A DNA stretch of 64,000 bases from an uncultured Actinomycetes bacterium (GTDB taxonomy: Bacteria > Actinomycetota > JAICYB01), in assembly GCA_963766295.1 (NCBI GenBank), contig CAVXYW010000001.1:666815-730814 (forward strand). Reading direction: 5' to 3'. The translations under genes and the position numbers were made by a program. Numbering within the stretch: the first letter of the stretch is position 1; the number at the start of each line of letters is the position of its first letter. The notes under the pieces were generated by a model. The model was not told the origin of the DNA and searched no databases. It saw nothing but the letters and a program-made list of their open reading frames with translations. Below, in pieces: positions 27,631 through 51,270 of the stretch.

Positions 27631-27703
27631 GCCGGGTTAGCTCAGTGGTAGAGCAGCGGTTTTGTAAACCGCAGGTCGTCGGTTCAATCCCGACACCCGG
27701 CTC
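27631..27703 (+). tRNA. tRNA-Thr (anticodon TGT)
   Basis: Cloverleaf by hand: acceptor GCCGGGT/ACCCGGC, D-stem GCTC/GAGC, anticodon stem GCGGT/ACCGC with loop TTTGTAA (anticodon TGT), T-arm GTCGG-TTCAATC-CCGAC, discriminator T. CCA is not encoded. Confidence 0.8.
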
Positions 27704-35608: not shown

Positions 35609-36343
35609 TCACGCCGTGAGGCCGCCGTCGACGACGATGACCTGACCGGTGACGAATGCGGCTTGAGGTGACGCGAGGAAAAGTACCGCCGAAGCCACAT
35701 CCTCGGGCTCCCCAAGTCGGCCCACCGGAGTACGTCGGATGATCTGTTCGAGATCGTTCTCATCCAAGCCGTGTGTCATTTCCGTCCGGAGGTATCCGGG
35801 TGCAACGGAATTAACCGTGATACCGCGCCCGCCGAGTTCCCGGGCGAGGGCACGGGTGAACCCGTTGAGTGCCGCCTTGGTAGAGCTGTACACAGAGAGT
35901 CCGCGATAGCCGGAGAGTCCGACGATGGACGAGATGTTGATCACGCGTCCCGTTTCCTGCCTCAGCATGCGCCGGACAACGGCGCGCGTTAGGCGGATCG
36001 TGCCCTTGAGGTTGAGATCCACCATCGTGTCCACGTCGTCCTCGTGTACAAGACCGACAACTCCGTCGATCGCAACACCGGCGTTGTTCACGAGAACGTC
36101 GATTGCACCGAACCGCTCGACCACGTTGCGCACGAACGGGTTCGCTGCCTCTCGGTCGGTGAGATCGATGGCCTCGAAATAGAAGCGATCGGGGCCCGCC
36201 TCGGCTGCTAACGAGTCCGTCTCGGCCGTCGGTGTCCGACTGCATGTAGCGACACGGTCGCCGCAGGCGAGGAACGCTCGGATCAGCGCCGCACCAAGAC
36301 CGCGGCTCCCGCCGGTAACGATGATGGCTCGGCCTGTCGTCAC
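35609..36343 (-). CDS. SDR family oxidoreductase (3-oxoacyl-ACP reductase FabG-like)
   Basis: [13 protein letters not shown] glycine-rich motif, NNAG, and an S...YxxxK catalytic pattern. Overlaps the upstream adenylating-enzyme gene by 4 nt. Confidence 0.8.
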
Positions 36344-37710
36344 TGCGTCGCCTCTTCACGGCCGCGGGCGATCTTGTGTCCGCGCACCTCGAGGGAGTCG
36401 ACGAAGCGGATACGCCTGGGTCTCGCGGCTGGAGCGAGAGTCGCGCAGGCCGTCCGGATCTCGTCGGCTAGATCCTCGGTGTCGACACCGGACACTGCGA
36501 CGACGTCAACAGCGACTATCTGTCCCGTGACGGGATTCGCTCGGCCATACGCCCGGACGAACTCGACGCCGGCGATCGACTCCACGATCTCTTCTACGGG
36601 AAGGGGATGCACCTTTACGCCGCCAACATTGATGATCTCGCTGGTTCGCCCGACGAACGCGATCCGGTCTCCACGCACCTCGACGAGATCACCTGTTGGC
36701 CGCCAGTCGTCGTCGATGTCGCTTTCGCCGTAGTAGCCGAGCATCCCGACGCGCGAGCGCACATGTAGCTCGCCGTCGACGATCCGCATCTGCACGTCGG
36801 CATCGTCGCTTCGTTCGAGCACCGTCGTGGGCAGACCGCTCTGCCTGTCGCGAACCGAGATCCCGAGGCCGAATTCGGTTGCGCCGTATACCTGCGAGAT
36901 TTTCGCCGACGGGAACAAACGACCCAGCCGCTCGATGAGGGGGCCCGGGACGGCTTCACCGCCGAGGGTGATCTGCTCGAGCGGGATCCCGCGCGCCGTC
37001 TCTTCGTCCAGCAGTGTGGCGATGAAGCGCCAGAACGTTGGCGTAGCACTCACGTGCGTAACGCCGAGTTCCCTCATGACCGCGAGGGCTTGCCTCGGCT
37101 GGTTCGAATCAGAAGCGACAAGCGTTGCGCGGCTGGCTAGCACGTGGAGTAACACTTGCACTCCAGCGAACTGGTTCAGGTTGTAAGCGAGCAGCCAGCG
37201 GGCGCCGGGCTGCACGTCGGTGTGCTTCGCCGCACCGACCAACCGAGCCCAGTCGTGTCGAGCTGCACGCTGGCGGCCGGTCGTGCCGGTTGTAAGGATC
37301 AGCACCGGGGCTTTGCCGGCTATGGCAGGTGCATCTCCGGTCTCTACCGGCAGGGATTCGAGCGGCACGACTTCAACGGACCCGAGATCAATCGGCCGGG
37401 CCGAGACGACGACGCGGTGCCCGAACTGCATTGCAAACGACTCGATAGATCCGGCGTCGAGACGATCCGGATAGACGCACCCTTCGCTCCCCACGGCGGA
37501 GGAAGCGCAGAGCAAAGGCAGAAGGTCTACAGCTTCTCCGATGCACCCGAACCGGTCGATAGAGCGCGCCTGGAGCCCTCGCGCCAGCGCGTTACTCGTG
37601 TCGAGACACTCGGCATACGTGTAGGAACGGGTAGTCGAAACGACGAGGGGCCGATCGGGAGCTTCCTCGGCGCAGGCGCGCACCAGCTGAATCAGCACGG
37701 TGCACCCCAC
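36340..37710 (-). CDS. AMP-binding (class I adenylate-forming) enzyme, short DltA-like acyl/aminoacyl-carrier-protein ligase candidate
   Basis: [10 protein letters not shown] (A3), YGATEFG (A5), TGD (A7) and [13 protein letters not shown] (A8) motifs. 456 aa, GTG start, located 19 nt downstream of the ACP gene. Confidence 0.7.
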
Positions 37711-39618: not shown

Positions 39619-40380
39619 ATGCCGATCGGGACATCAGTTGAAGGACACGTTGGAGTCATCGAGCTTCAGGATCCGCCGCACAATTTCCTGAACATCGAAC
39701 AGGTCAAAGCGGTGGCCGACGCCCTCGATGCGTTTGTCGCCGATATGGAGATCCGCGCAGTGGTTCTCGCCGCCCAGGGTAGGTCGTTCTGTGCAGGGGC
39801 AGGCTTTGGAGGAAGCGGTGGAAGCGAGCAGGTCGGTGGTTCCACTGAGGATCTGTACGTGCAAGCCGCACGGCTCTGCGAAGCCGAGCTCCCATTCGTC
39901 GCCGCAATTCAGGGGCCGGCGATAGGCGGGGGTTTGGGTTTCGCACTGACCGCGAACATGCGAGTTACGTGTCCCGAGGCGCGCTTTTCCGCGAACTTCG
40001 TGAAGCTGGGGATCCACCAAGGGTTCGGGCTTTCCGTAACGCTTCCCGACCTGATCGGTCCGTCAAAGGCCGCCGAGGTCCTGCTGATGGGCCGCCGATA
40101 CAACGGTGAAGAGGCCACAGCATTAGGCCTTGCCGACGTTTGCGTCCCACTCGAAAAGGTGCGCGAGACCGCGATGGAGCTTGCAGCGGAGATCGCCGCG
40201 GGCGCGCCGCTGGCGATCCGCGCGATCAACAAGACGTTGCGAGCCGGCTTGGCCGAGCGTGTTCGCGACGCAACCAAGCACGAGGCGGCGGAGCAGGCCA
40301 AGCTTTTCGCAACGCAAGACTCGCGCGAAGGGATCGCGTCGGTGAACGAGCGCCGGCCCGGCAACTTCACCGGCCGGTAA
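39619..40380 (+). CDS. enoyl-CoA hydratase/isomerase family protein
   Basis: Crotonase fold pattern (AAQGRSFCAGAGF, AAIQGPAIGGG). Confidence 0.8.
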   Translation: MPIGTSVEGHVGVIELQDPPHNFLNIEQVKAVADALDAFVADMEIRAVVLAAQGRSFCAGAGFGGSGGSEQVGGSTEDLYVQAARLCEAELPFVAAIQGPAIGGGLGFALTANMRVTCPEARFSANFVKLGIHQGFGLSVTLPDLIGPSKAAEVLLMGRRYNGEEATALGLADVCVPLEKVRETAMELAAEIAAGAPLAIRAINKTLRAGLAERVRDATKHEAAEQAKLFATQDSREGIASVNERRPGNFTGR

Positions 40381-40448
40381 GGGCCGAAGCGCCTTCTCCG
40401 CATCGGGGCCCATGCCGGGTCGCTCGCTCCCCGGTAAGCTCATCGCTC

Positions 40449-41207
40449 ATGTCCACCGCACAGATCAACGGGATAGAGCTCGGTTACGAAGCCTCGGGCG
40501 AGGGCCAAGCCGTCTTCTTCACGCACGGCTATCAAGCTTCAAAGGCGATGTGGCAGCCGCAGCGTGAAGCTTTGGACGGCGCCTATCGCGTGATCACTTG
40601 GGATCTACGAGGGCACGGAGAGTCGGGTATCCCCGACGATCCCGCCATGTACTCGCACGATCTGATGATCGGCGACATGGGTGCGCTAATCGATCACTTG
40701 GATGCCGAGCCGTCCGTCCTCGTCGGACACTCCCTCGGAGGCTATGCGTCGTTGTGCTTCTACCTCGAACGTCCGCAGTCCGTGCGCGCGTTGGTTCTAG
40801 TCGGCACAGGCCCAGGGTTCCGCGATCCCGAAGCTCGTGGGAAGTGGAACAGCATGGCCGAGCGGTTCGCTACACGTTTGGATGAAGACGGTTTGGACAT
40901 CCTCAAGCGCGCGAGCGCTGAGGTCAGCACGGCCAACCACCGATCGGCGAACGCGCTGGCCTTGGCGGCCCGCGGGATGCTGGCTCAATCGGATTCACGG
41001 GTGATCGACGCGATCGCCGAGACCTCGGTCCCGACGCTGGTGCTGATCGGGTCTGAAGACAAGCCTTTCATCGGGTCTAGCGAGTACATGGCCAAGAAGA
41101 TCCCGGGGGCCGAGCTGGTGACAGTGGATGGGGGAGGGCACGCCGCGAACATGGAACGGCCCGAGGCCTTCAACGCAGCCCTGCGGAGCTTCCTGGACCG
41201 GCTCTAG
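40449..41207 (+). CDS. alpha/beta hydrolase
   Basis: GHSLGG nucleophile elbow, a HG region near the N-terminus, and ATG 40449. The upstream part of the track ORF is an out-of-frame extension. Confidence 0.7.
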   Translation: MSTAQINGIELGYEASGEGQAVFFTHGYQASKAMWQPQREALDGAYRVITWDLRGHGESGIPDDPAMYSHDLMIGDMGALIDHLDAEPSVLVGHSLGGYASLCFYLERPQSVRALVLVGTGPGFRDPEARGKWNSMAERFATRLDEDGLDILKRASAEVSTANHRSANALALAARGMLAQSDSRVIDAIAETSVPTLVLIGSEDKPFIGSSEYMAKKIPGAELVTVDGGGHAANMERPEAFNAALRSFLDRL

Positions 41208-41394
41208 CAGCACGATTAGGCCCTTTGGAGGGGCCGCCGGTAGACTCTTGACTCGGGAATCAAGGGGCCACTGGGAGGGGTTCCTGGCTCGAATCGTAGA
41301 GCTGCTACGTGAGCGAACGCGTGCTCCGCTTGCCCTGATCGAGCGAGCGGGCGCGGCGTGGTCCGCACCCTCGGATTGGGTTCGCCGCGCCATC

Positions 41395-43485
41395 ATGCTC
41401 GTCGCAGCCATCGGCGTTTGGCTGATCCTCGACAACACGCTGGACAGAGGACTGCCGGCCGGGATCATCATCCTCGGCCTGGTCTTCGGCTCCCTCTACG
41501 CCCTGACGGCTATCGGGTTGGTCCTGATATACCGCGCGAACAGCGTTGTGAACTTCGCACAAGCCGAGTTGGGCGGTATCGCTGCCGTTTTGTCGATCCA
41601 GCTGGTTCTGCAGTACCAGGTCAATTACTTCGCTTCGCTGATCGTGGGGATCATCGCTTCGACGCTGATCGGCGCGCTTGTCTACACGTTCATCATTCGA
41701 AGGTTCCGGCGGGCGCCCAGGCTCATACTCGCCGTCGCAACCATCGGCATCGCGCAGATATTGCAGGGAGGGTCCATCCTCATCTCGCTGTTGTTCGGCG
41801 AGATCCCTGCGGGACGGCGATACGAGACGCCCTTCGACGTATCCTTCTCGGTCTTCCCGGTCATCTTCCGCAGCGATCACCTGCTGGCGATGATCATCGT
41901 CCCGGTCGTGATGGTCGCTTTGGCTTTGTTCCTTAAGTTCACCGACTACGGCATAGCGATCAGGGCAGCGGCCGAGAACGGCGACCGAGCCAATCTGCTC
42001 GGCGTGCCGATCCATTACCTGCATTTGGGCGTGTGGTCGATCGCCGCTTTCCTGTCGGCGCTCGCTGCGCTGCTGCGCACACCGATCGTCGGGTTCTCGG
42101 CGTTCACGGGCGTTACGGGGAGTGGCAACGCGCTTCTGCTTCGAACGCTGGCCGCTGCCGTGATCGGACGTATGGAAAGCCTGCCTAGAACTGTTGTGGC
42201 GGCTCTCGGCCTCGGCATCTTCCAGGAGGCCGCTTCGTGGACCTTCTCGAACACCGTGATCGTCGACGCGTTCCTCGTCCTGATCATCCTCGGCGCCCTT
42301 CTCGTCCAGCGTGGACTGATCAGCCGTGCAGCCGAGACCGGTATGTCGACGTGGCGGGCGATCCGCGAGGTGCGTCCGATCCCGGCGGAGCTCAGGAACC
42401 TGCCCGAAGTCCGGTGGGGAGTTTGGGGCCTGCGCGCGGTCATGGCGGCTTTCGTGCTGACCCTTCCTCTTTGGGCAAACACCGCGCAGGAAGAGGTCGT
42501 CGGACTCATCTACATCTACGCGATCATCGCCGTTTCCTTGGTGATCCTCACCGGTTGGGCCGGTCACATCTCGCTGGGTCAGTTCGCACTCGTCGGCTTC
42601 GGAGCGGCAACTACCGCTGTTCTCTACGGACGGCACGATTTCGATTTCTTCCTCGCTTTGATTTGCGGGATCGCGGTATCCGCATTGACCGCGCTGGTGA
42701 TCGGCTTGCCGGCTTTGCGCATCCGGGGTCCGTTCCTGGCGGTAACGACGCTGGCGTTCGCGGTGACGGCCGGCTCGTACTTCCTGGAAGACCGGTATTT
42801 CCCATGGTTCGTCCAGGACCGTATCGAAAGACCTACGTTCTGGGACCGCATCCCGCTGGACGCCGATTGGAAGATGTACTACGTCACGTTGATCGGGCTG
42901 GTCCTCGCTCTGGGTGCGGCCTGGAACTTGCGCCGGTCGCGCACCGGCCGAGCGTTGATCGCCGTGCGCGACAACCAGCTGGCCGCCGAGAGTGTGAGCA
43001 TCAACTCAACGCGCCTGAAGCTGACCGCGTTCGTGATATCGGGCGCGATGGCTGGGTTCGCCGGAGGGATCTACGCATTGCATCAGAACGGCATCTTCAC
43101 CGGTTCGTTCGATGCGGAAGTCAGCATCCGGCTGTTCTCCATGGTCGTTATCGGAGGTCTCGGCTCCCTTCCCGGTGCGCTACTGGGAGCCGGGTACGTC
43201 GAAAGCACTGAGTTCTTCCTATCCGGTGGATGGGCGCTTCTTGCTTCTGGTGCGGGGATCCTCGTCCTGCTGATGTTCCTGCCCGAGGGCCTCGGAGGTT
43301 TGATGTATACGGTCAGGGACGGGATCCTCCGCCGCATCGCACGGCGCCGCGACCTCGTCGTGCCGAGCTTGCTGGCCGACGTCCGCATCGAGACCGGCGA
43401 GATCGACATCGACATGACATCCGTTCTTTCCGGCAACGGACGCGTCGACAGAGCTTTGCCCAAGGCAAAGACGGGGAGCCGCTGA
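41395..43485 (+). CDS. branched-chain amino acid type ABC transporter permease, fused LivH-LivM
   Basis: About 696 aa. The first half is LivH-like (SLYALTAIGLVLIY..NFAQAE) and the second half is LivM-like (IIAVSLVILTGWAGHISLGQFALVGFGA). The start is uncertain (ATG 41395; the frame is open from 41128). Confidence 0.7.
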   Translation: MLVAAIGVWLILDNTLDRGLPAGIIILGLVFGSLYALTAIGLVLIYRANSVVNFAQAELGGIAAVLSIQLVLQYQVNYFASLIVGIIASTLIGALVYTFIIRRFRRAPRLILAVATIGIAQILQGGSILISLLFGEIPAGRRYETPFDVSFSVFPVIFRSDHLLAMIIVPVVMVALALFLKFTDYGIAIRAAAENGDRANLLGVPIHYLHLGVWSIAAFLSALAALLRTPIVGFSAFTGVTGSGNALLLRTLAAAVIGRMESLPRTVVAALGLGIFQEAASWTFSNTVIVDAFLVLIILGALLVQRGLISRAAETGMSTWRAIREVRPIPAELRNLPEVRWGVWGLRAVMAAFVLTLPLWANTAQEEVVGLIYIYAIIAVSLVILTGWAGHISLGQFALVGFGAATTAVLYGRHDFDFFLALICGIAVSALTALVIGLPALRIRGPFLAVTTLAFAVTAGSYFLEDRYFPWFVQDRIERPTFWDRIPLDADWKMYYVTLIGLVLALGAAWNLRRSRTGRALIAVRDNQLAAESVSINSTRLKLTAFVISGAMAGFAGGIYALHQNGIFTGSFDAEVSIRLFSMVVIGGLGSLPGALLGAGYVESTEFFLSGGWALLASGAGILVLLMFLPEGLGGLMYTVRDGILRRIARRRDLVVPSLLADVRIETGEIDIDMTSVLSGNGRVDRALPKAKTGSR

Positions 43486-46400
43486 TGGCCAAAGCTCCTA
43501 CCCGAAGAAAACCATCCGCACGGAAAGCTGCTCCCACCGAAGAGATGAAGACCCCCGAGATGTTGGCTGCGGAGATCGCGGGAGCCAAGCTACCGCCGCG
43601 CATACTCCCCGACGAGCCGCCGCCGCCCGAGTACGGACGGTTCGATCCGCGTCGCATCACCCATCCGGCGCCGTTGTTCCCGCTCGTCGTGCTGTTCGGG
43701 CTAAACGCTGTAGACGAGCTCGATCGTGTTGCGTTCGGTGTTCTCACCCCTGAGATCCGCGACTGGTTCGGTCTGTCGCTCTTCTCGGTAAGCCTGATCG
43801 CGACCCTGGTTGTCCCCGTGTCGCTCCTGCTCGAGTTGCCCATCGCCTATTACGCCGACAGGAAGAACCGCGTCCGAATGGCTGTAGCAGGGGCCAGCGT
43901 CTGGGGCGCCTTCTCCTTGTTCACAGGTATGGCCTGGAACGTTGGAACTCTGATCGTAGGACGGCTGGGCTCGGCAACCGGCCGCTTGTTCAACGCGACC
44001 CATCGCAGCCTCCTCTCCGACTATTTCCCGACCTCTTCTCGAGCTCGTGTCTTCTATGCGCACGGACTCGCGAATTCCCTGGGGCAGCTGATCGCTCCGC
44101 TGGCGGCCGGCCTTCTGGCTGCGGCCTTCACTTGGAGGACGCCTTTCGTTCTTTTCGCCATCCCTACGGCCTTTTTCGTGTTTCTCGGTTTGCGACTGCG
44201 GGAGCCCAAGCGCGGTATGCACGAGCGGCTAGAGGCCGGAGCCGACCAAGAGACCGCAGAGATCGAAGATGATGCGCCGGGCTTCGCGGAGACCTTCCGA
44301 GTTCTGTTCTCGGTGCGATCGGCTAAGCGCATCTACTACGCCTTGCCGTTCCTCACTGCGTCGTTCTTCGGTTTCGCCACGTTCCTGAGTGTCTTCTACA
44401 ACGACGAATACAACATCGGTCCGGGTACGCGTGGTGCGATCTTCTCGTCCATCGAGGGCGTCCAGATCATCTCGATCATCATCGGTGGGATCTTCGTCCA
44501 GCGCTTCGTCAATCGCAGTCCGGCACTTGCGATAAAACTGCTTGGTGTGTCGGCCATCGGTGTGTCGGCCGGGATAATCATCCTCGCGCTCTCTCCGAAT
44601 CTAGGTGTCGCGATCGCCGGCCACGCGATCCTGTCCTTCATGAGCGCGCCTCTACTCCCGGGAGCGCTCGCTGTGATCTCGTTCATCATCCCGCCGAGCA
44701 TGCGCACTCTTGGTTTCTCGACCGGGAACCTCTGGCTCCTGTTGGGTGCGCCGGCCATCCCGATCGTGGGCGCGATGGGCGACGCCTTTGGGATACGCGT
44801 CGCGCTGCTGATCATGGTGCCGATCTATCTGTTTGGTTCATTCCTGATCGCTTCTTCGGGCTTCACGATCGAAGCCGACATGGAACGAGTGAGAGTCTCG
44901 GCACGGGCGCAGGCGGATATGCGCCGGAGCCGTCGAGAGGGAAGTGCCAAGCTGCTCATCGCCCGCGACCTCGATGTTGCCTACGACGGCGTTCAGGTGC
45001 TCTTCGGAGTCGACTTCGAGGTTTCGGACGGGGAGATCATTGCCCTCCTCGGCACCAACGGTGCGGGGAAATCCACTCTCTTGCGAGCGATCTCCGGCTT
45101 GCAGCCGGCCAGCGGAGGCACCGTTCTGTTCGACGGACGCATCATCTCGGGCGCCGACCCCGTGCAGATCGCCCGCCTCGGTGTTGCGCAGATACCCGGC
45201 GGACGAGCCGTCTTCCCGACGCTCACGGTCGAAGAGAACATCCGCGTGGCCGGATGGATCTACCGCGGCGATGAGGAGCACGTTAAAGCCTCTACAGAAC
45301 GGATACTCGAGCACTTCCCTGTGCTGCGTGACCGCTGGGAAGCGCGGGCCGGCGACCTTTCCGGTGGCGAGCAGCAGATGCTTTCTCTCGCCCAAGCCTT
45401 CATCTCCAAGCCGAAGCTGCTCCTCATCGACGAGCTCACCCTCGGTCTCGCGCCAACCATCGTCGAGAAGCTGCTCGAGATCGTTCGTGAGATCCACGCG
45501 CAGGGAACGACCATCGTCCTCGTCGAGCAGTCGGTGAACATCGCATTGAAGCTTGCGAAGCGCGCCGTGTTCCTCGAGAAGGGTGAGGTGCGCTTCTCCG
45601 GACCTACCAAGGATCTTCTCGCACGTCCCGACGTCTTGCGCGCTGTGTTCCTCAAAGGGGCATCGTCGATGACCGACGGCAACGGCGAACTTCGGCGGGC
45701 AGGACCAGGGCGAACGAAGTCGACAAGTGCCCTTAAGGACGGAGAGGTCGTCTTGCAGTCGATCGGCGTAAGCAAGCATTACGGCGGTGTGCTCGCGGTC
45801 GATGGTGTCGATCTCGAGCTACGTCAGGATGAGATCCTCGGGATCATCGGCCCAAATGGGGCCGGCAAAACTACCTTCTTCGATCTTCTTACCGGCTTCA
45901 CCCCGCTCGACGGGGGCCGCGTCATCCTCAACGGTGAAGACGTCACCACGTGGCCGGCCAGCAAGCGAACGAAACACGGTCTCGGTCGGTCTTTCCAAGA
46001 CGCACGCCTCTGGTCTTCACTCACCGTGCGCGAAGCCGTCGCCGTCGCTTTCGAGCGAACGATCACCGAGCGGTCGCCTGTGCACGCGATGTTCGGTCTT
46101 CCGGTGGTCGGGGATGCCGAGCGGAATGTGAAGCGTCGCGCGGAAGAGCTCATCGAGCTCTTGGGGTTGAAGGCGTTCGCCGACAAATTCATATCCGAGC
46201 TTTCTACAGGATCACGACGCATCGTCGAGATCGCTACGCTCCTCGCGCATCGTCCATCCGTCCTTCTTCTCGACGAGCCTTCCTCGGGTATCGCTCAGAA
46301 GGAGACCGAAGCGCTCGGACCACTGCTGAAACGCGTGCGTGAGTACATGGACGGGAGCCTGGTTGTCGTCGAGCACAATGTGCCGTTGATCTCGACCTTG

Positions 46401-46643
46401 GCCGATCGCATAGTGGCGATGGACCTCGGACGCGTGATCGCCGACGGCACGCCGGACAAGGTGCTCAACGACCCGGCCGTCGTCGAGTCGTACCTCGGCA
46501 CCAGCGGCTACAAGGAGCTCACAGGAGCGGGCGACGGCCGTAAGCGGCGGAGCGCGGTACGTAAGCGCCCGACACGCAAGAGCGCAGTGCGCACTCCTCG
46601 CAAAAAGCCGACACGCCGCCGGACAACACGTAAGGCTCGATGA
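43486..46643 (+). CDS. tri-domain fusion protein: MFS-like 12-TM domain + LivF-like ABC ATPase + LivG-like ABC ATPase, with a Lys/Arg-rich C-terminal tail
   Basis: ATG 43486 overlaps the permease stop (TGATG). MFS signatures: GLNAVDELDRVAFG and YADRKNRVRMAVAG. First NBD: GTNGAGKSTLLRAISGL...LSGGEQQMLSLA...LLIDE. Second NBD: GPNGAGKTTFFDLLTG...LSTGSRRIVEIA...LLLDEP. The tail is RKRPTRKSAVRTPRKKPTRRRTTRKAR. One uninterrupted frame. Confidence 0.65.
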
Positions 46644-47485
46644 AGCGCGCGGTCGCCGGCGTTTTGTGCAGCCTGCTCATGTTCGCCGCTTGCAGTCTGG
46701 GTGAGCGTGAGGATTGGGCCGAAGCAATGCACGACGCATTTGATACGGCCCAACGCGCCAAGACGGCCAGCGCCTTTGTGCATGTCGACTTCAAAGCGAT
46801 CGATATCGTGGGTCGGTCCACACCCGATCAGCTGTTTCACGACCTCAATGGTGTAGTGGATTTCAGAACGCGCAGATCCCAAACCATCGAGACAACGGGT
46901 CGCAAGCAAGCGCTGATCTTCGATGATCTCGTTGCTTACCTGCCGCGCAGCGAAACTTCGACGGGGAAAAAGTGGGTCAGCACTGGTTTCCTGGAGGAAC
47001 CTGAGGAGGACGTCGACGTCGAGGACAGGCGGTTCTCGCTAGCCGTCCCGATGGTTTCTCCGATCATGTCGTTGGAGCTTCTGATGGGCGCTCTTACGGG
47101 AAGCACTCGCCGCGTTGGGGCCGAAACGGTTCGGGGCACACAAACGACTCATTACAGGGCTAAGGTCGCGCCAGACAACGCCGCGCGCGAGATAGACGAC
47201 GAAGACCGCAGGGAGGGGATCCTTCGGGTCCTGCAAACGATGGGTGCGAACAGCGAAGTGATAGATGCCGACGTTTGGATCGATAGCGACGGGCTGGTTC
47301 GACGGGTCAGCTACGGACTCGAGCAGCGGCAGGATCGAGTCAACTCGTTCCGGACCACCATCACGACCGACTATTTCGATATCGGCCGCGACGTGAAGAT
47401 CGACGTGCCGACCGACACGATGAGAACGGACGACTTCCAGCAGTTCGTCATCGAATTCGTCCGCGAAGCCGTTACGTTCGGCTAG
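46640..47485 (+). CDS. secreted lipoprotein of unknown function (translationally coupled to the ABC fusion gene)
   Basis: ATGA overlap with the upstream stop. The signal and lipobox are LLMFAACS. Confidence 0.5.
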   Translation: MKRAVAGVLCSLLMFAACSLGEREDWAEAMHDAFDTAQRAKTASAFVHVDFKAIDIVGRSTPDQLFHDLNGVVDFRTRRSQTIETTGRKQALIFDDLVAYLPRSETSTGKKWVSTGFLEEPEEDVDVEDRRFSLAVPMVSPIMSLELLMGALTGSTRRVGAETVRGTQTTHYRAKVAPDNAAREIDDEDRREGILRVLQTMGANSEVIDADVWIDSDGLVRRVSYGLEQRQDRVNSFRTTITTDYFDIGRDVKIDVPTDTMRTDDFQQFVIEFVREAVTFG

Positions 47486-47563: not shown

Positions 47564-49399
47564 TTATCTGAAGACCGGCGGATCTTCGCGCGCCCACTCG
47601 CCGTTTCGGAATCTCTTTCCGCCGTATGTTTCGATGTACGCGCCTTTCACTCCGTCGTAACCGTTGGCGTCGGGATTCCACCAAACCTCGCGGGCGTCGT
47701 CGATGGCGGTGTGGTCGTGAGCACCCTTAGTGCCGTCCGGGCCATCTTGATAGGACGTGTAACCGACTTGGAAGTCGGGCGCTCCGCCGGGCGGCGATCG
47801 GAAGATGGCTTCAGCCATGTTCACGGGAGTGAGGTTGGGGCCTGTTGCTTGCAGGAAGCTGAACACCCGCATGGCAAGGAAGTAGCCGCCGTCGGTTCCG
47901 GCTGCGAGCTTGGTTCCCGTCGCCGCTTTGTACGTCTTCGGCGGTTCACCGTTGCCACCGAGGATCTTCCCCGTCGGACCGAGCTGGCTCATGCCGAACA
48001 GGCTTCCTCTCACCTGGTTGGGTTCCCACAACCTCGGAACGTTGTCCACGTCGGTAAGGGCCACACCGATGACGATCCATTCCGGGTTGTACCCCTGACC
48101 CTGCGCCGATTGCGTGAGGAAGATCGGTGAGATCGGATCGCAGGTCAGGACGATCGTGGTGACGCCCTCGGCCTTGAACTGGATGATCGCCTGTGCCGCT
48201 TCGTCGGCGAACCTCGAGATGTCGAGCGTGTAGTTGTAACGGGACCCCTTGGGGGTGCCGTACTTCGTTTGCACATCTCGCTCGAAGATGTTGCCGCACG
48301 TCTGGTATGCGTCGTTGTCGGGGATGTAGATCGCATACTTACGCGTCTTATCCTTGTCCAACCCCTTCGCATACTTGGCAGGCTTCTTGGCGAGGCGCTT
48401 CCCGTAGTACTCAGCCACTTGATATGTGATCCGCTCGCATTCCGGCGGTCCGGCCCAGAGGTAGGGGTGATGCTTGCGGTAAAAGGTCTCCGGGTAATAC
48501 GCGGCTGCGTCGATCACCATGAGCTTTCGGGCTGCGGCGCACTCGGAGAAGGCCGGCCCACCGTCCGTCACGGCGAAGGCTTTCAGATCGTTGACGATGA
48601 CGTTCACGTCCGCGCAGGCGCCCTCCTTGCCTCGACCTTGCGCCTCTTGTGTTTCGTCGCCGAACTGAGACTCCCACTCGATGAGCTTGACTTGGCGTCC
48701 CCAGAGCTCGAAGACCTTGTTGAAGTACTTGTAGAACTCGAGGCGCGCAGCATCGGTCACGTCTTCGGATGCACCGCCGGCCTGCGCGACGACGGCGTCA
48801 ACGGCTTGTGAGTTGGCCGAGTCCGGGAACTTCCGCCGGACGATGATGATCTCCTTCTCGGTAACGCCGCGGTACGTCGCGCCAGGGTTCTTACCGTCCC
48901 ACTTCGGATAACAGGGCGCCGCGTAAGCCGACCACGGGATCTGCCGAACGTTCGGCCCACAATCGAAACCGCTTTTGGTCTTGCCGGTCAGCGTCCAGGC
49001 CAAGGGGTCGAATCCGGCCGGTGTAGCGGCCGTGGCAACAGTCGACGGGCCCGCTATAGCCGTTGCGCTCTCGACCTTCGTCTCAGACGGGCCGGTTGTT
49101 GCCGAGGGAGAGTCTCCGGACGTCTGGGTTGTCTCTCCGGACGAGACCTGACTGGCGGTTTCTGTCGGCGCGTCGTTGTCCCGCAACGGGATCAGAACGA
49201 CTATGAGGCCCCAGATGGTGAGCATTGCGTAGAAGGGCAGGTACTTCTGGATGTTGCGGACCACGCGATCGGGCCCGGTCAGTGCGTGACCGTTGGTCTC
49301 CAGAGCTTCGACACGCTCAGCAAATCGATCGAATGCATTGTTGAGCCGATCGATCGATTGTTGAATTGCGCGGTTGGAGTCGGGGCCGCGAGTAGCCAC
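47564..49399 (-). CDS. membrane-anchored extracytoplasmic protein, paralogue 1 (candidate ABC solute-binding protein)
   Basis: Proposed GTG start at 49399, 2 nt after the paralogue 2 stop. N-terminal cytoplasmic motif SIDRLNNAFDRFAERVEALE, one TM (YLPFYAMLTIWGLIVVLIPL), a Ser/Thr/Ala-rich linker, then a conserved ectodomain of about 500 aa. Confidence 0.5.
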   Translation of the reverse strand: MATRGPDSNRAIQQSIDRLNNAFDRFAERVEALETNGHALTGPDRVVRNIQKYLPFYAMLTIWGLIVVLIPLRDNDAPTETASQVSSGETTQTSGDSPSATTGPSETKVESATAIAGPSTVATAATPAGFDPLAWTLTGKTKSGFDCGPNVRQIPWSAYAAPCYPKWDGKNPGATYRGVTEKEIIIVRRKFPDSANSQAVDAVVAQAGGASEDVTDAARLEFYKYFNKVFELWGRQVKLIEWESQFGDETQEAQGRGKEGACADVNVIVNDLKAFAVTDGGPAFSECAAARKLMVIDAAAYYPETFYRKHHPYLWAGPPECERITYQVAEYYGKRLAKKPAKYAKGLDKDKTRKYAIYIPDNDAYQTCGNIFERDVQTKYGTPKGSRYNYTLDISRFADEAAQAIIQFKAEGVTTIVLTCDPISPIFLTQSAQGQGYNPEWIVIGVALTDVDNVPRLWEPNQVRGSLFGMSQLGPTGKILGGNGEPPKTYKAATGTKLAAGTDGGYFLAMRVFSFLQATGPNLTPVNMAEAIFRSPPGGAPDFQVGYTSYQDGPDGTKGAHDHTAIDDAREVWWNPDANGYDGVKGAYIETYGGKRFRNGEWAREDPPVFR

Positions 49400-49401
49400 G
49401 C

Positions 49402-51270
49402 TTACTTGAAGACCGGTGGGTCTTCCTTCGGCCACTCGCCGTTGCGGAAGCGCTTTCCTCCGTGCGTTTCGACGTAGGTCCCCTTCTTCCCGTCGGCTCC
49501 CGTGCCGCTGGCGTTCCACCAGATCTCGCGCGAGTCGTCGATGCCGGCGTGGTCCTTGGCTCCCTTGGTGCCGTTGGAGCCGTCCTGATACGAGATGTAG
49601 CCGACGTCGTAGTTCGGTGCGCCAGCGGGCGGCAGGGCCCAGAACGCGTCGGCCAAGGTCTGCGGCGTCAGATTGGGACCGGCCGCCTGCATCGCATTGA
49701 AGGCCGCTATGAAGTTCATGTAGAACGGCTGACCCGTTGTTCCCGCCGGGATGTTCGTTCCAGTAGCCGCTTTGTAGCTCTTACCCGATTCACTTTCCGG
49801 GCCGAGGACCTTCTTCGTAGCGCCGACCTGGCTCATCCCGAACAGACTTCCTCGTATCTCTTCCCCGTCCCAGGTGCGGGGGAAGTTGTCCGAGTCGTTC
49901 AGTGCCACTCCGATGTTGAACCACTCCGGCCACCAGTTCTGAGCCTTGGCCGATTGCGTGAGGAAGACCATGGATATCGGGTCGCAGGCCATCACCAATG
50001 TGGTTGCGCCGGCGGCATTGAACGAGATCGCAGCATTCGCCGCCTCGTCGGCGAATCGGGAGATATCAAGTGTGTAGTCGTAGCGCGGCCCGGGTTGAAC
50101 GCCGTACTTGTCGCGTGCCTCCTTCGTTGTGATGCCAACGCAGTACTGATACTCCGGGTTGTTCGGGACGTAGGTAGCGAAAACACGTTTCTTGTCCTTT
50201 TGGAGGTTCTTCGCCCACTTGGCCGGCTTATTTGCCAGACGTTTTCCGACGTACTCAGCCACCTGGTAAGAGATCCGCTCGCACTCCATCGTGGTGTGCC
50301 AGACGTATGGATGGTGCTTCTTGTACCAGCGCTCCGGGAAGTAAGCCCCGCCCCAGAACACGACCATCTTTCGCTCAGCAGCACATTCTGCAAAAACGTT
50401 CGACGAACTCATCACCGCGAAGGCCTTGATGTCGTTCTTGATCACGTTCGCGTCGGCGCATGCACCTTCCTTGCCCTTGCTCTGCGCTTCTGCCGTTTCA
50501 TCGCCGAACTGAGACTCGTAGATCACCCACTTAACCTTGCGACCCCAGAGCTCATAGACCTTGTTGAACCAGGGTCGCCAGACGTCTCCTACCGCCCGCG
50601 CTACCTCGGTCGACGCGAATCCGGCGGCCGTGGTGGCGGCCTCAACCGCTTGCGAGTTGGCCGACTCGGGGAAGCGGCGAACAACGATGGTGATCTCCTT
50701 GGCAGTTACCCCGTGGGAGGTCGCGCCTGGGTTCCCTTCCGTCCACTTCGGATAGCACGGCGCGGCATAAGCGGACCACGGGATCTGCCGAACTCCCGGC
50801 TTGCAGTCATAGTCTCCGGCGGTTTTGCCCTCGAGGTTCCAGGCAAGCGGATCGAAGCCCGCCGACACGTTGGCTGACGGCGCCGCTGCCGCTGGCCCGG
50901 CGGTGGTCGCCGGGCCGGATCCGTTCGAATCTGTTCTGGTTTCGGTCTCAGCTGCGACCTCCGTGCCTGGCGTGAGGCCCGTGGAGGTGTCGGATGTGGT
51001 GACTTGGCTGGCTTCTTCACGATCGTTGTCGGAGCGTGTGGGGAGGATCAAGAACATGAGAAGGAAGATCGCTGCGAGGGCGAAGAAGGGCATCCACCGC
51101 TGGACGAAGGTCGTGAAGCGGTCGGCCTCGCCTGCGGGGCCGCCGTTGCCGCCGACCTCCAGCGCGTCGATGCGGTCGGCCAGGCGCTCAAAAGCGTCCG
51201 CTAGGCGGTCGACGGAATGCTGTAAGGACGCGTTCGCGCCTCTGGTGCTGCGAGCTCCCCGTGTTGCCAA
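49402..51270 (-). CDS. membrane-anchored extracytoplasmic protein, paralogue 2 (candidate ABC solute-binding protein)
   Basis: TTG start. Same architecture as paralogue 1: SVDRLADAFERLADRIDALE, TM MPFFALAAIFLLMFLIL, a linker, and an ectodomain collinear with paralogue 1 (GFDPLAW, IPWSAYAAPCYPKW, KGKEGACAD, FRNGEW..EDPPVF). Confidence 0.5.
   Translation of the reverse strand: MATRGARSTRGANASLQHSVDRLADAFERLADRIDALEVGGNGGPAGEADRFTTFVQRWMPFFALAAIFLLMFLILPTRSDNDREEASQVTTSDTSTGLTPGTEVAAETETRTDSNGSGPATTAGPAAAAPSANVSAGFDPLAWNLEGKTAGDYDCKPGVRQIPWSAYAAPCYPKWTEGNPGATSHGVTAKEITIVVRRFPESANSQAVEAATTAAGFASTEVARAVGDVWRPWFNKVYELWGRKVKWVIYESQFGDETAEAQSKGKEGACADANVIKNDIKAFAVMSSSNVFAECAAERKMVVFWGGAYFPERWYKKHHPYVWHTTMECERISYQVAEYVGKRLANKPAKWAKNLQKDKKRVFATYVPNNPEYQYCVGITTKEARDKYGVQPGPRYDYTLDISRFADEAANAAISFNAAGATTLVMACDPISMVFLTQSAKAQNWWPEWFNIGVALNDSDNFPRTWDGEEIRGSLFGMSQVGATKKVLGPESESGKSYKAATGTNIPAGTTGQPFYMNFIAAFNAMQAAGPNLTPQTLADAFWALPPAGAPNYDVGYISYQDGSNGTKGAKDHAGIDDSREIWWNASGTGADGKKGTYVETHGGKRFRNGEWPKEDPPVFK

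Follow-up and report, generated by a model that had tools for sequence, protein, structure and literature searches.

In the 64,000-nucleotide stretch of an uncultured Actinomycetes bacterium analysed here (contig CAVXYW010000001.1; called the window, with all positions in its own numbering), a single gene on the forward strand joins a major facilitator superfamily (MFS) domain to two ATPases of the type found in ATP-binding cassette (ABC) importers. On one chain of 1052 amino acids (aa), a 12-helix MFS domain is followed by a LivF-like and then a LivG-like ATPase. In this study, we show that the fusion gene is genuine and does not result from an indel artefact. With a fused LivH-LivM-type permease (LivHM) encoded directly upstream and two LivJ-fold binding proteins, as judged from a structural model, encoded next to the operon, the fusion is very probably the energising subunit of a binding-protein-dependent HAAT-type (LivHMGF/Urt-like) ABC importer. 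We tentatively regard its MFS domain as a coupled, conformationally active accessory module of this importer.

The fusion gene and its family

The frame stays open on the forward strand from 43230 to the TGA at 46641-46643. The initial annotation, which was made from the letters of the window, counted 1052 residues in one uninterrupted frame, and our count agrees; its start coordinate, 43486, was off by one base. Translation likely starts at the ATG at 43485, which shares one base with the TGA of the upstream LivHM open reading frame (ORF) in a TGATG overlap, GCTGATGG, and which is preceded at eight bases by GGGGAG. The start of a downstream lipoprotein gene overlaps the stop of the fusion gene (ATGA at 46640-46643). 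The coupling to both neighbours that had been proposed is thus borne out by overlaps at either end. Scans for promoters and terminators returned counts at chance level. The gene is divided as follows.

43485..46643, forward strand: MFS-LivF-LivG fusion gene, 1052 aa plus stop
43485..43649, forward strand: basic, poorly conserved N-terminal cytoplasmic extension, residues 1-55, with gaps in most homologues
43650..44864, forward strand: Spinster-like MFS domain with 12 transmembrane segments (TM1-TM12), residues 56-460 (MFS_1, AlphaFold2, Foldseek)
44865..44954, forward strand: helical linker from TM12 to the first nucleotide-binding domain (NBD1), residues 461-490, a helix in the model (H413-435)
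44955..45650, forward strand: NBD1, LivF/UrtE-like ATPase, residues 491-722 (NCBIfam, PDB match)
45651..45752, forward strand: variable inter-ATPase linker, residues 723-756 (24-61 aa in homologues)
45753..46502, forward strand: NBD2, LivG/UrtD-like ATPase with BCA_ABC_TP_C end motif, residues 757-1006 (Pfam, NCBIfam)
46503..46643, forward strand: polybasic C-terminal tail, residues 1007-1052 (20 Lys/Arg of 46), plus stop

Placement by Pfam and by NCBIfam agrees with the earlier reading of a single chain with MFS, LivF-like and LivG-like parts, F before G, and every motif quoted for it (motif A of the MFS part; Walker A, signature and Walker B of both NBDs) is found in the translation. Pfam matches ABC_tran twice at 2.4e-61 and BCA_ABC_TP_C at residues 983-1006. 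NCBIfam groups NBD1 (493-723) with UrtE/LivF and NBD2 (756-1006) with LivG/UrtD, and the best PDB matches are 1ji0 for NBD1 (LivF-like, 6e-53) and the LivG protein MJ1267 for NBD2 (1g6h, 6.6e-32). The motifs read GTNGAGKST, LSGGEQQ and IDELT in NBD1 and GPNGAGKTT, LSTGSRR and LDEPS in NBD2; Walker A, Q-loop, signature and Walker B are conserved at 95% or more among homologues. The NCBIfam equivalog cut-offs are missed for LivG (300.7 vs 362), LivF (276 vs 441) and UrtD (300.2 vs 304.1). That of UrtE (285.8) is passed by the whole fusion protein with a score of 315.9, because its two NBD stretches add up. PF00664 (ABC_membrane), which would be expected in the N-terminal domain of an ABC exporter half-transporter, is not matched; here this domain is of the MFS type.

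A search of about 5.8 billion proteins gave 723 matches at E<=1e-50. The best 120 of the 723 were inspected. They are 935-1128 aa long, cover 85-100% of the query at 50-92% identity and contain PF07690 and PF00005 in every case; homologues come from JGI, ENA, NCBI and Logan assemblies. Recurrence of the architecture in all 120 is far beyond chance. For finer comparison we used L001, an 85% identical locus from a metagenome-assembled genome, as reference for Nei-Gojobori dN/dS. Values were 0.084 for the MFS domain, 0.065 for NBD1 and 0.063 for NBD2, all of them rough since dS is about 1.1 and thus near saturation. The N-terminal extension (0.31) and the polybasic tail (0.35) have higher values. 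Both domain junctions align with L001 without gaps. The linker between the MFS domain and NBD1 is 93% identical in L001, the one between the NBDs 53%. Among homologues the former has a median length of 35 aa, and within it D465 is invariant or nearly so, stand-alone relatives included.

These data bear on whether the fusion of an MFS gene with livF and livG was created by an indel or an assembly error, a concern of the initial annotation, whose author suspected frameshifts elsewhere in the window; related contigs with frameshifted pieces do exist, e.g. in NBD2 of the locus L014. However, more than 120 independent full-length homologues share the same junctions, these are gap-free in L001 with a highly conserved first linker, and purifying selection acts over the whole frame, the MFS domain being almost as constrained in dN/dS as the NBDs. 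Because of this conservation and selection we reject an artificial fusion, the probability of which is negligible.

The fusion was initially also regarded as a rarity. We found instead a large family in Acidimicrobiales/Actinomycetota with several architectural variants. In a HMMER scan of 50%-identity cluster representatives with the MFS domain alone, 234 representatives matched at E<=1e-30 and 1374 at E<=1e-10. Architectures were mapped for the best 150 of them. The first comprises MFS, LivF and LivG (about 900-1060 aa, MFS identity down to about 30%), the second MFS and LivF only (675-755 aa) and the third MFS alone (420-500 aa). Stand-alone MFS relatives at 48-53% identity occur outside any liv context. 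A 734-aa MFS-LivF form makes up a very abundant, length-invariant family with clusters of up to 219 members, the few named of which are Acidimicrobiales. Named sources of the fusion family as a whole are Acidimicrobiales, 'Actinomycetota bacterium' and Actinospongicola. Annotation pipelines label its proteins 'MFS transporter', 'ATP-binding protein' or 'branched-chain amino acid transport system ATP-binding protein'.

A polybasic tail, pointed out in the initial annotation, is indeed present here and in all listed homologues with at least 69% identity (P0001-P0026). It is restricted to this closest clade: overall, a tail of at least 20 aa with at least 30% Lys/Arg was found in 33 of 121 sequences.

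The Spinster-like MFS domain

Profile and modelled fold both uphold the assignment of the N-terminal domain to the MFS. Pfam MFS_1 matches at 2.6e-32 (112.5 bits, cut-off 33.4). An AlphaFold2 model of residues 50-490, built from 20 aligned homologues (pLDDT 85.8, pTM 0.84), comprises 12 transmembrane helices and then a C-terminal cytoplasmic helix leading into NBD1. Foldseek returned 466 fold matches in the PDB at E<=0.001, and the best 50 were all MFS transporters. They are led by the bacterial Spinster homologue HnSpns (6e9c, 6.4e-12), with human SPNS1 (TM-score 0.79/0.82), DgoT, SPNS2 and EfpA next in this order. When a sequence profile was run against the PDB, HnSpns came first (9.7e-25, almost full length), followed by SPNS1, EfpA, DgoT, SPNS2 and Rv1410 (8pnl, 1.8e-7). 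The nearest solved relatives of the domain are Spinster transporters, namely HnSpns and human SPNS1 and SPNS2. The best NCBIfam match, the ACS family, lies far under its cut-off.

Motif A is represented by YADRKNRVRM (residues 122-131) between TM2 and TM3; D125 and R129 of its A-D-R-x-x-R motif are invariant among homologues. Aligned to HnSpns, D80-R81 in TM1 correspond to D41-R42 and R160 to R122, and D125, R129 and D179 fall on the motif-A charge-relay residues D87, R91 and D142. Roles in HnSpns have been described for the TM1 Asp-Arg pair, the TM4 Arg, the 'master switch' Glu129 and the motif-A charge relay (PMC9440201). In our family, D125, R129 and D179 are invariant or nearly so across all three architectures (F-G fused, F fused and stand-alone), and many residues of the cavity region are invariant. 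The position of Glu129, the 'protonation master switch', is occupied by R167 (43983-43985) in the window and by Lys in most homologues. Arg or Lys at this position is also found in stand-alone relatives, so the pattern is a trait of the bacterial Spns-like subfamily and not of the fusion. TM1 contains two extra acidic residues, D77 and E78. Together with R167 these may constitute a charge-swapped coupling network. Some divergent fused lineages no longer have the acidic motif of TM1.

Like Spinster proteins (HnSpns 6e8j/6e9c, MsSpns, SPNS1/SPNS2), the domain thus has the TM1 Asp-Arg pair and the motif-A relay and, in addition, an EPxRG turn after TM6 and a DYYP..R segment. It differs from them in that identity is only 15-21%, in Arg/Lys at the Glu129 position and in D77 and E78. 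Moreover, known Spns proteins work on their own, without the covalent link to ABC ATPases seen here. The TM6-TM7 loop was considered as an NBD-coupling element and rejected, as its EPxRG segment is general to Spns and present in HnSpns and in the stand-alone relatives.

Permease, binding proteins and gene neighbourhood

The genes around the fusion gene that enter into the argument are the following.

41128..43485, forward strand: fused LivH-LivM-type permease, up to 785 aa, with two BPD_transp_2 halves
46640..47485, forward strand: SCO4651-family lipoprotein (NF053532, 3.2e-23)
47564..49399, reverse strand: putative membrane-anchored LivJ-fold substrate-binding protein 1, 611 aa (AlphaFold2 and Foldseek)
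49402..51270, reverse strand: paralogous binding protein 2, 622 aa, 55.6% identical to protein 1

In the permease ORF, BPD_transp_2 (PF02653) is matched twice at 4.3e-62. NCBIfam places a UrtB/LivH-like half at residues 114-400 and a LivM/UrtC-like half at 457-725, both far under the equivalog cut-offs (UrtB 84 vs 250, UrtC 77 vs 296). The protein has at least 14 hydrophobic segments. Since the ORF overlaps that of an upstream hydrolase, the true LivHM start may be the TTG at 41248; the listed hydrolase ORF overlaps both of its neighbours, which leaves the starts of hydrolase and LivHM uncertain.

The first reading of the locus was incomplete in that it overlooked the two binding-protein genes at 47564-51270. 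Both are convergent to the operon and kept in L001. The ORF of protein 1 extends to 49519; its start is probably the GTG at 49399, because of comparison with the paralogue and with homologues of 611-615 aa. In both proteins, an N-terminal helix on the cytoplasmic side is followed by a single transmembrane anchor, a linker of low complexity and a domain of about 450 aa. Searches against Pfam at E<=10, and against the PDB by phmmer or profile, gave no match. An AlphaFold2 model based on 39 homologues has a pLDDT mostly above 90 over residues 170-640. Its top 50 Foldseek matches in the PDB, at about 1e-13 and with target TM-scores of about 0.7, are nearly all binding proteins of the LivJ/LivK/UrtA type or Venus-flytrap receptor domains of the same fold. 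PF13458 was precomputed on five homologues. Judged by the modelled fold, a cognate type-I LivJ-like binding protein is present. The family has at least 235 homologues, all called 'hypothetical protein' where named, and is characterised by six conserved cysteines, four of them invariant, and by an N-terminal transmembrane anchor instead of a lipobox.

At this anchor a juxtamembrane motif 'H.RR[YF].PFY...VW.....LP' is conserved, which in the window reads QKYLPFY (about 49230-49300) and QRWMPFF (about 50990-51060). The motif is common to the binding proteins and to unrelated extracytoplasmic proteins encoded 3' of the fusion (L101:12991-14613, L011:13941-14708, L100:14456-15076), and from its distribution it looks like a specific docking or sorting module. 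A Tat signal ('RRY.PFY') was considered for the binding proteins and rejected, since the window copies read QKY and QRW at this point and since the anchor follows a conserved cytoplasmic helix.

The same components recur elsewhere. A scan of genome contigs with the single protein gave L001 as the only true relative; a metagenome scan on NBD-motif patterns returned mostly ordinary LivF/LivG loci, the informative one being L020. In every related locus examined, a fused LivHM lies directly beside the fusion, upstream in most and downstream in L020. Genes for LivJ-fold binding proteins lie next to these or not far away in the window and in L001, L011, L012, L014, L015, L018 and L100/L101; on one further contig a 558-aa protein without Pfam match precedes LivHM. 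The order in L011 (Actinospongicola halichondriae) is binding protein, LivHM and fusion, and in L014 binding protein, LivHM, MFS-LivF and then a separate LivG. L020 (7012-12077) encodes MFS-LivF (734 aa), LivHM and a separate LivG within a sugar/hydroxy-acid catabolic cluster. L018 encodes two binding proteins, LivHM, a free MFS protein, the MFS-F-G fusion and then a 347-aa protein. Here the 460-aa free MFS protein lies between LivHM and the fusion (L018:6001-10286), so that one system has two MFS modules, and four-base overlaps connect the genes for LivHM, the free MFS protein and the fusion. One assembly (GCA_004366205.1, SIRW01000110.1; L100/L101) has two full tandem cassettes, each with binding protein, LivHM, MFS-F-G and a downstream protein. 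P0101 is a candidate third paralogue alongside these.

The HAAT family of ABC importers (TC 3.A.1.4) includes LivHMGF/LivJ and UrtABCDE. The system described here has in common with them the BPD_transp_2 pair, LivF/LivG ATPases with BCA_ABC_TP_C and full ATP-binding motifs, and putative type-I binding proteins of the LivJ fold. It differs from them in its fused permeases, in ATPases fused in the order F then G and in the 12-TM MFS domain before LivF. Moreover, its binding proteins are anchored by an N-terminal helix and too diverged for Pfam, and its scores lie under the Liv/Urt equivalog cut-offs. The presence of LivJ-fold binding proteins beside the operon suggests that the importer is a complete one, of the binding-protein-dependent HAAT type, with the MFS domain added to it, and it is with considerable confidence that we assign the fusion to such an importer as its energising subunit. 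By strong inference from LivHMGF-type systems, NBD1 and NBD2 would pair on LivHM as a heterodimeric ATP motor, and a small organic substrate would be brought by the anchored binding proteins for ATP-driven uptake. The structural hallmarks of a HAAT importer and of an MFS protein are both found here, and their covalent union sets the system apart from all characterised members of either group. In a full-text literature search we found no description of an MFS-LivF/LivG fusion; TCDB lay outside this search, and a catalogue entry is therefore possible.

Neither the scores, which lie under the Liv/Urt equivalog cut-offs, nor the neighbourhoods, which differ by locus, point to a particular substrate. 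To read it from the gene neighbourhood was rejected, as the neighbours differ at every locus: an enoyl-CoA hydratase and a hydrolase in the window; nuo genes, sugar catabolism, siderophore genes or MoxR elsewhere. In the window, the enoyl-CoA hydratase and alpha/beta-hydrolase genes (39619-41207) are co-directional just 5' of LivHM and syntenic in L001.

The lipoprotein gene 3' of the fusion is conserved in L001 at 62%. No homologue was detected among the proteins encoded 3' of the fusion in L011, L018, L100 and L101, and in L012 a MarR gene is found at its position. For these reasons the lipoprotein was rejected as a conserved fifth subunit; from its distribution it is probably a lineage-specific passenger. 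The succession of an MFS module and a lipoprotein gene resembles mycobacterial LprG-Rv1410c. Unlike there, the lipoprotein belongs to the SCO4651 family and not to LppX/LprAFG, and it is not conserved with the fusion in other lineages. As a candidate LprG-like partner it was rejected as well, since it has no LppX_LprAFG match but only NF053532 and a weak DUF7537 match. Another family, without Pfam or NCBIfam match and unrelated to the lipoprotein of the window, lies 3' of the fusion in three lineages (L011:12901-13944, 347 aa; L018:10357-11400, 347 aa; L100:13243-14463, 406 aa).

Two further observations concern the rest of the window. In an ORF for an AMP-binding enzyme on the reverse strand (36340-37710), the Pfam model is matched in two stretches, the best of which covers model positions 166-384 only, from residue 136; this may reflect a divergent N-terminal part or a suspected frameshift. 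A single tRNA-Thr (anticodon TGT, 27631-27703) is the only Rfam/ARAGORN match in the 64 kb.

Role of the MFS domain

The initial annotation had offered three roles for the MFS domain, a regulatory module, a scaffold or part of a hybrid translocation pathway, and each is retained among the readings weighed here. Less firmly than the assignment to an importer, we favour a role of the MFS domain as a coupled and conformationally active accessory module. It would be a permanent accessory membrane module of this transporter class and no independent second transporter. The intact motif-A charge-relay network and the low dN/dS suggest that it still makes rocker-switch movements. The short conserved helical tether would hold it at the LivF side of the complex, where it could modulate the ATPase or transport cycle in a 'transceptor'-like manner, sensing ligand, lipid or proton-motive force. 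It may also dock the 'R[YFW].PF[YF]' signal-anchor helices of the binding proteins. The link between MFS and LivF persists where LivG is separate (L014, L020) and where gene order is altered (L020). This constancy, the presence of an own MFS domain in every paralogous cassette and the conserved tether argue for a generic, physically integrated role rather than for a pathway-specific partner.

Regulatory domains are known from importer ATPases, e.g. the C2 domain of MetN and those of ModC and MalK, and UhpC is an MFS sensor. The fusion resembles these in having an extra domain on the NBD chain that could gate the ATPase, and, as in UhpC, an MFS fold would serve in sensing and not in bulk transport. 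Unlike the domains of MetN, ModC and MalK, which are soluble and C-terminal, the extra domain here is membrane-embedded and N-terminal.

Several points weigh against such an accessory role. Any contact with LivHM or the NBDs, or influence on them, is hypothetical, the structural models being of isolated domains. The stand-alone relatives (48-53% identity) away from liv genes imply that the domain descends from a transporter acting on its own, and in the fusion it may still do so. The change of Glu129 to Arg/Lys and the loss of TM1 acidic residues in divergent fused lineages would fit a static scaffold equally well. The free MFS protein in L018 demonstrates that a covalent tether is dispensable. 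With dS at about 1.1, dN/dS is a rough measure, and the Liv/Urt scores would not allow a substrate to be named.

The first of these points leading to another reading is that of autonomy. The MFS domain might still be a proton-coupled Spinster-type transporter working in parallel, e.g. as an exporter or low-affinity carrier of a related amphipathic compound, and fusion would then only ensure that it is co-expressed and co-localised with the importer at a 1:1 ratio, for two-way traffic or dual-affinity uptake. The non-liv contexts of the stand-alone homologues are consistent with this, as are the conservation of the same positions in stand-alone and fused proteins and the autonomy of the characterised transporters nearest to it (HnSpns, SPNS1/2, EfpA, and MsSpns, a drug transporter). 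However, an ATPase does not itself handle the substrate, so that fusion to it would bring no gain in channelling, and the occurrence of an own MFS domain in each paralogous cassette suggests a generic mechanistic role. The highly conserved tether and the loss of the TM1 acidic motif in some fused lineages also speak against autonomy, which we consider unlikely.

We likewise see only a small chance that the MFS domain is a static, TMD0-like anchor or docking platform without transport or switching, which stabilises the complex or holds the anchor helices of the binding proteins. Accessory TMD0 domains exist in ABCC and TAP transporters, which supports such a scaffold. Further support comes from the conserved anchor motif common to the binding proteins and other operon-encoded extracytoplasmic proteins, from the basic residue at the Glu129 equivalent and from the loss of TM1 acidic residues in divergent members. 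On the other hand, the whole motif-A charge relay and many residues of the cavity region are invariant, and the dN/dS of the domain matches the low level seen in the ATPases, a constraint above what a passive anchor needs.

Finally, the MFS domain might be coupled energetically or mechanically to the ABC motor, by an ATP-gated or ATP-driven rocker switch acting through the tether between TM12 and NBD1 or by substrate handover between LivHM and MFS; we hold this general notion to be improbable. The initial annotation saw no obvious mechanistic precedent for joining the two transporter types, which was overstated. In the ArsA-ArsB arsenite pump and in KdpFABC, a membrane protein of the secondary-carrier or channel type forms one machine with a primary ATPase, and both can be regarded as hybrid primary/secondary machines. 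Their ATPases belong to other families (ArsA, P-type), they lack both a binding protein and a second full permease, and in neither case is an MFS protein covalently fused to an ABC protein. The analogy is thus one without homology, as the proteins are unrelated in sequence. In its specific form, in which ATP binding or hydrolysis would drive or gate the MFS rocker switch via the TM12 tether as in ArsA-ArsB, or LivHM and MFS would share a path as in KdpFABC, such an energetic hybrid is more improbable still. A succession of transmembrane domain, linker and NBD does mimic ABC half-transporters, the linker, with a median of 35 aa, is short as well as conserved, and the canonical proton master switch of Spns is absent. 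But the identical Glu-to-Lys/Arg change occurs in stand-alone relatives, the MFS domain has no obvious coupling helix, both NBD coupling grooves are presumably taken by LivHM, and driving through a tether is no option for the free MFS protein in L018.

Textbooks present ABC importers and major facilitators as two distinct solutions to the energising of transport; here they are joined under strong selection. The fusion is carried by Acidimicrobiales and relatives, a large and environmentally abundant group, with several paralogous cassettes in one assembly. For thousands of entries labelled 'MFS transporter' or 'ATP-binding protein', annotation as parts of a single system becomes possible, and a family of putative binding proteins invisible to Pfam has been identified. 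The Spns fold, medically relevant through SPNS1 and SPNS2, appears in a new functional setting. The role of the MFS domain would reveal either a new way of regulating or assembling ABC importers, by a membrane sensor or docking domain, or a true primary/secondary hybrid. Energetic or mechanical coupling, if true, would make this the first ABC-MFS hybrid primary/secondary transporter, in the main nutrient importers of a whole bacterial class.

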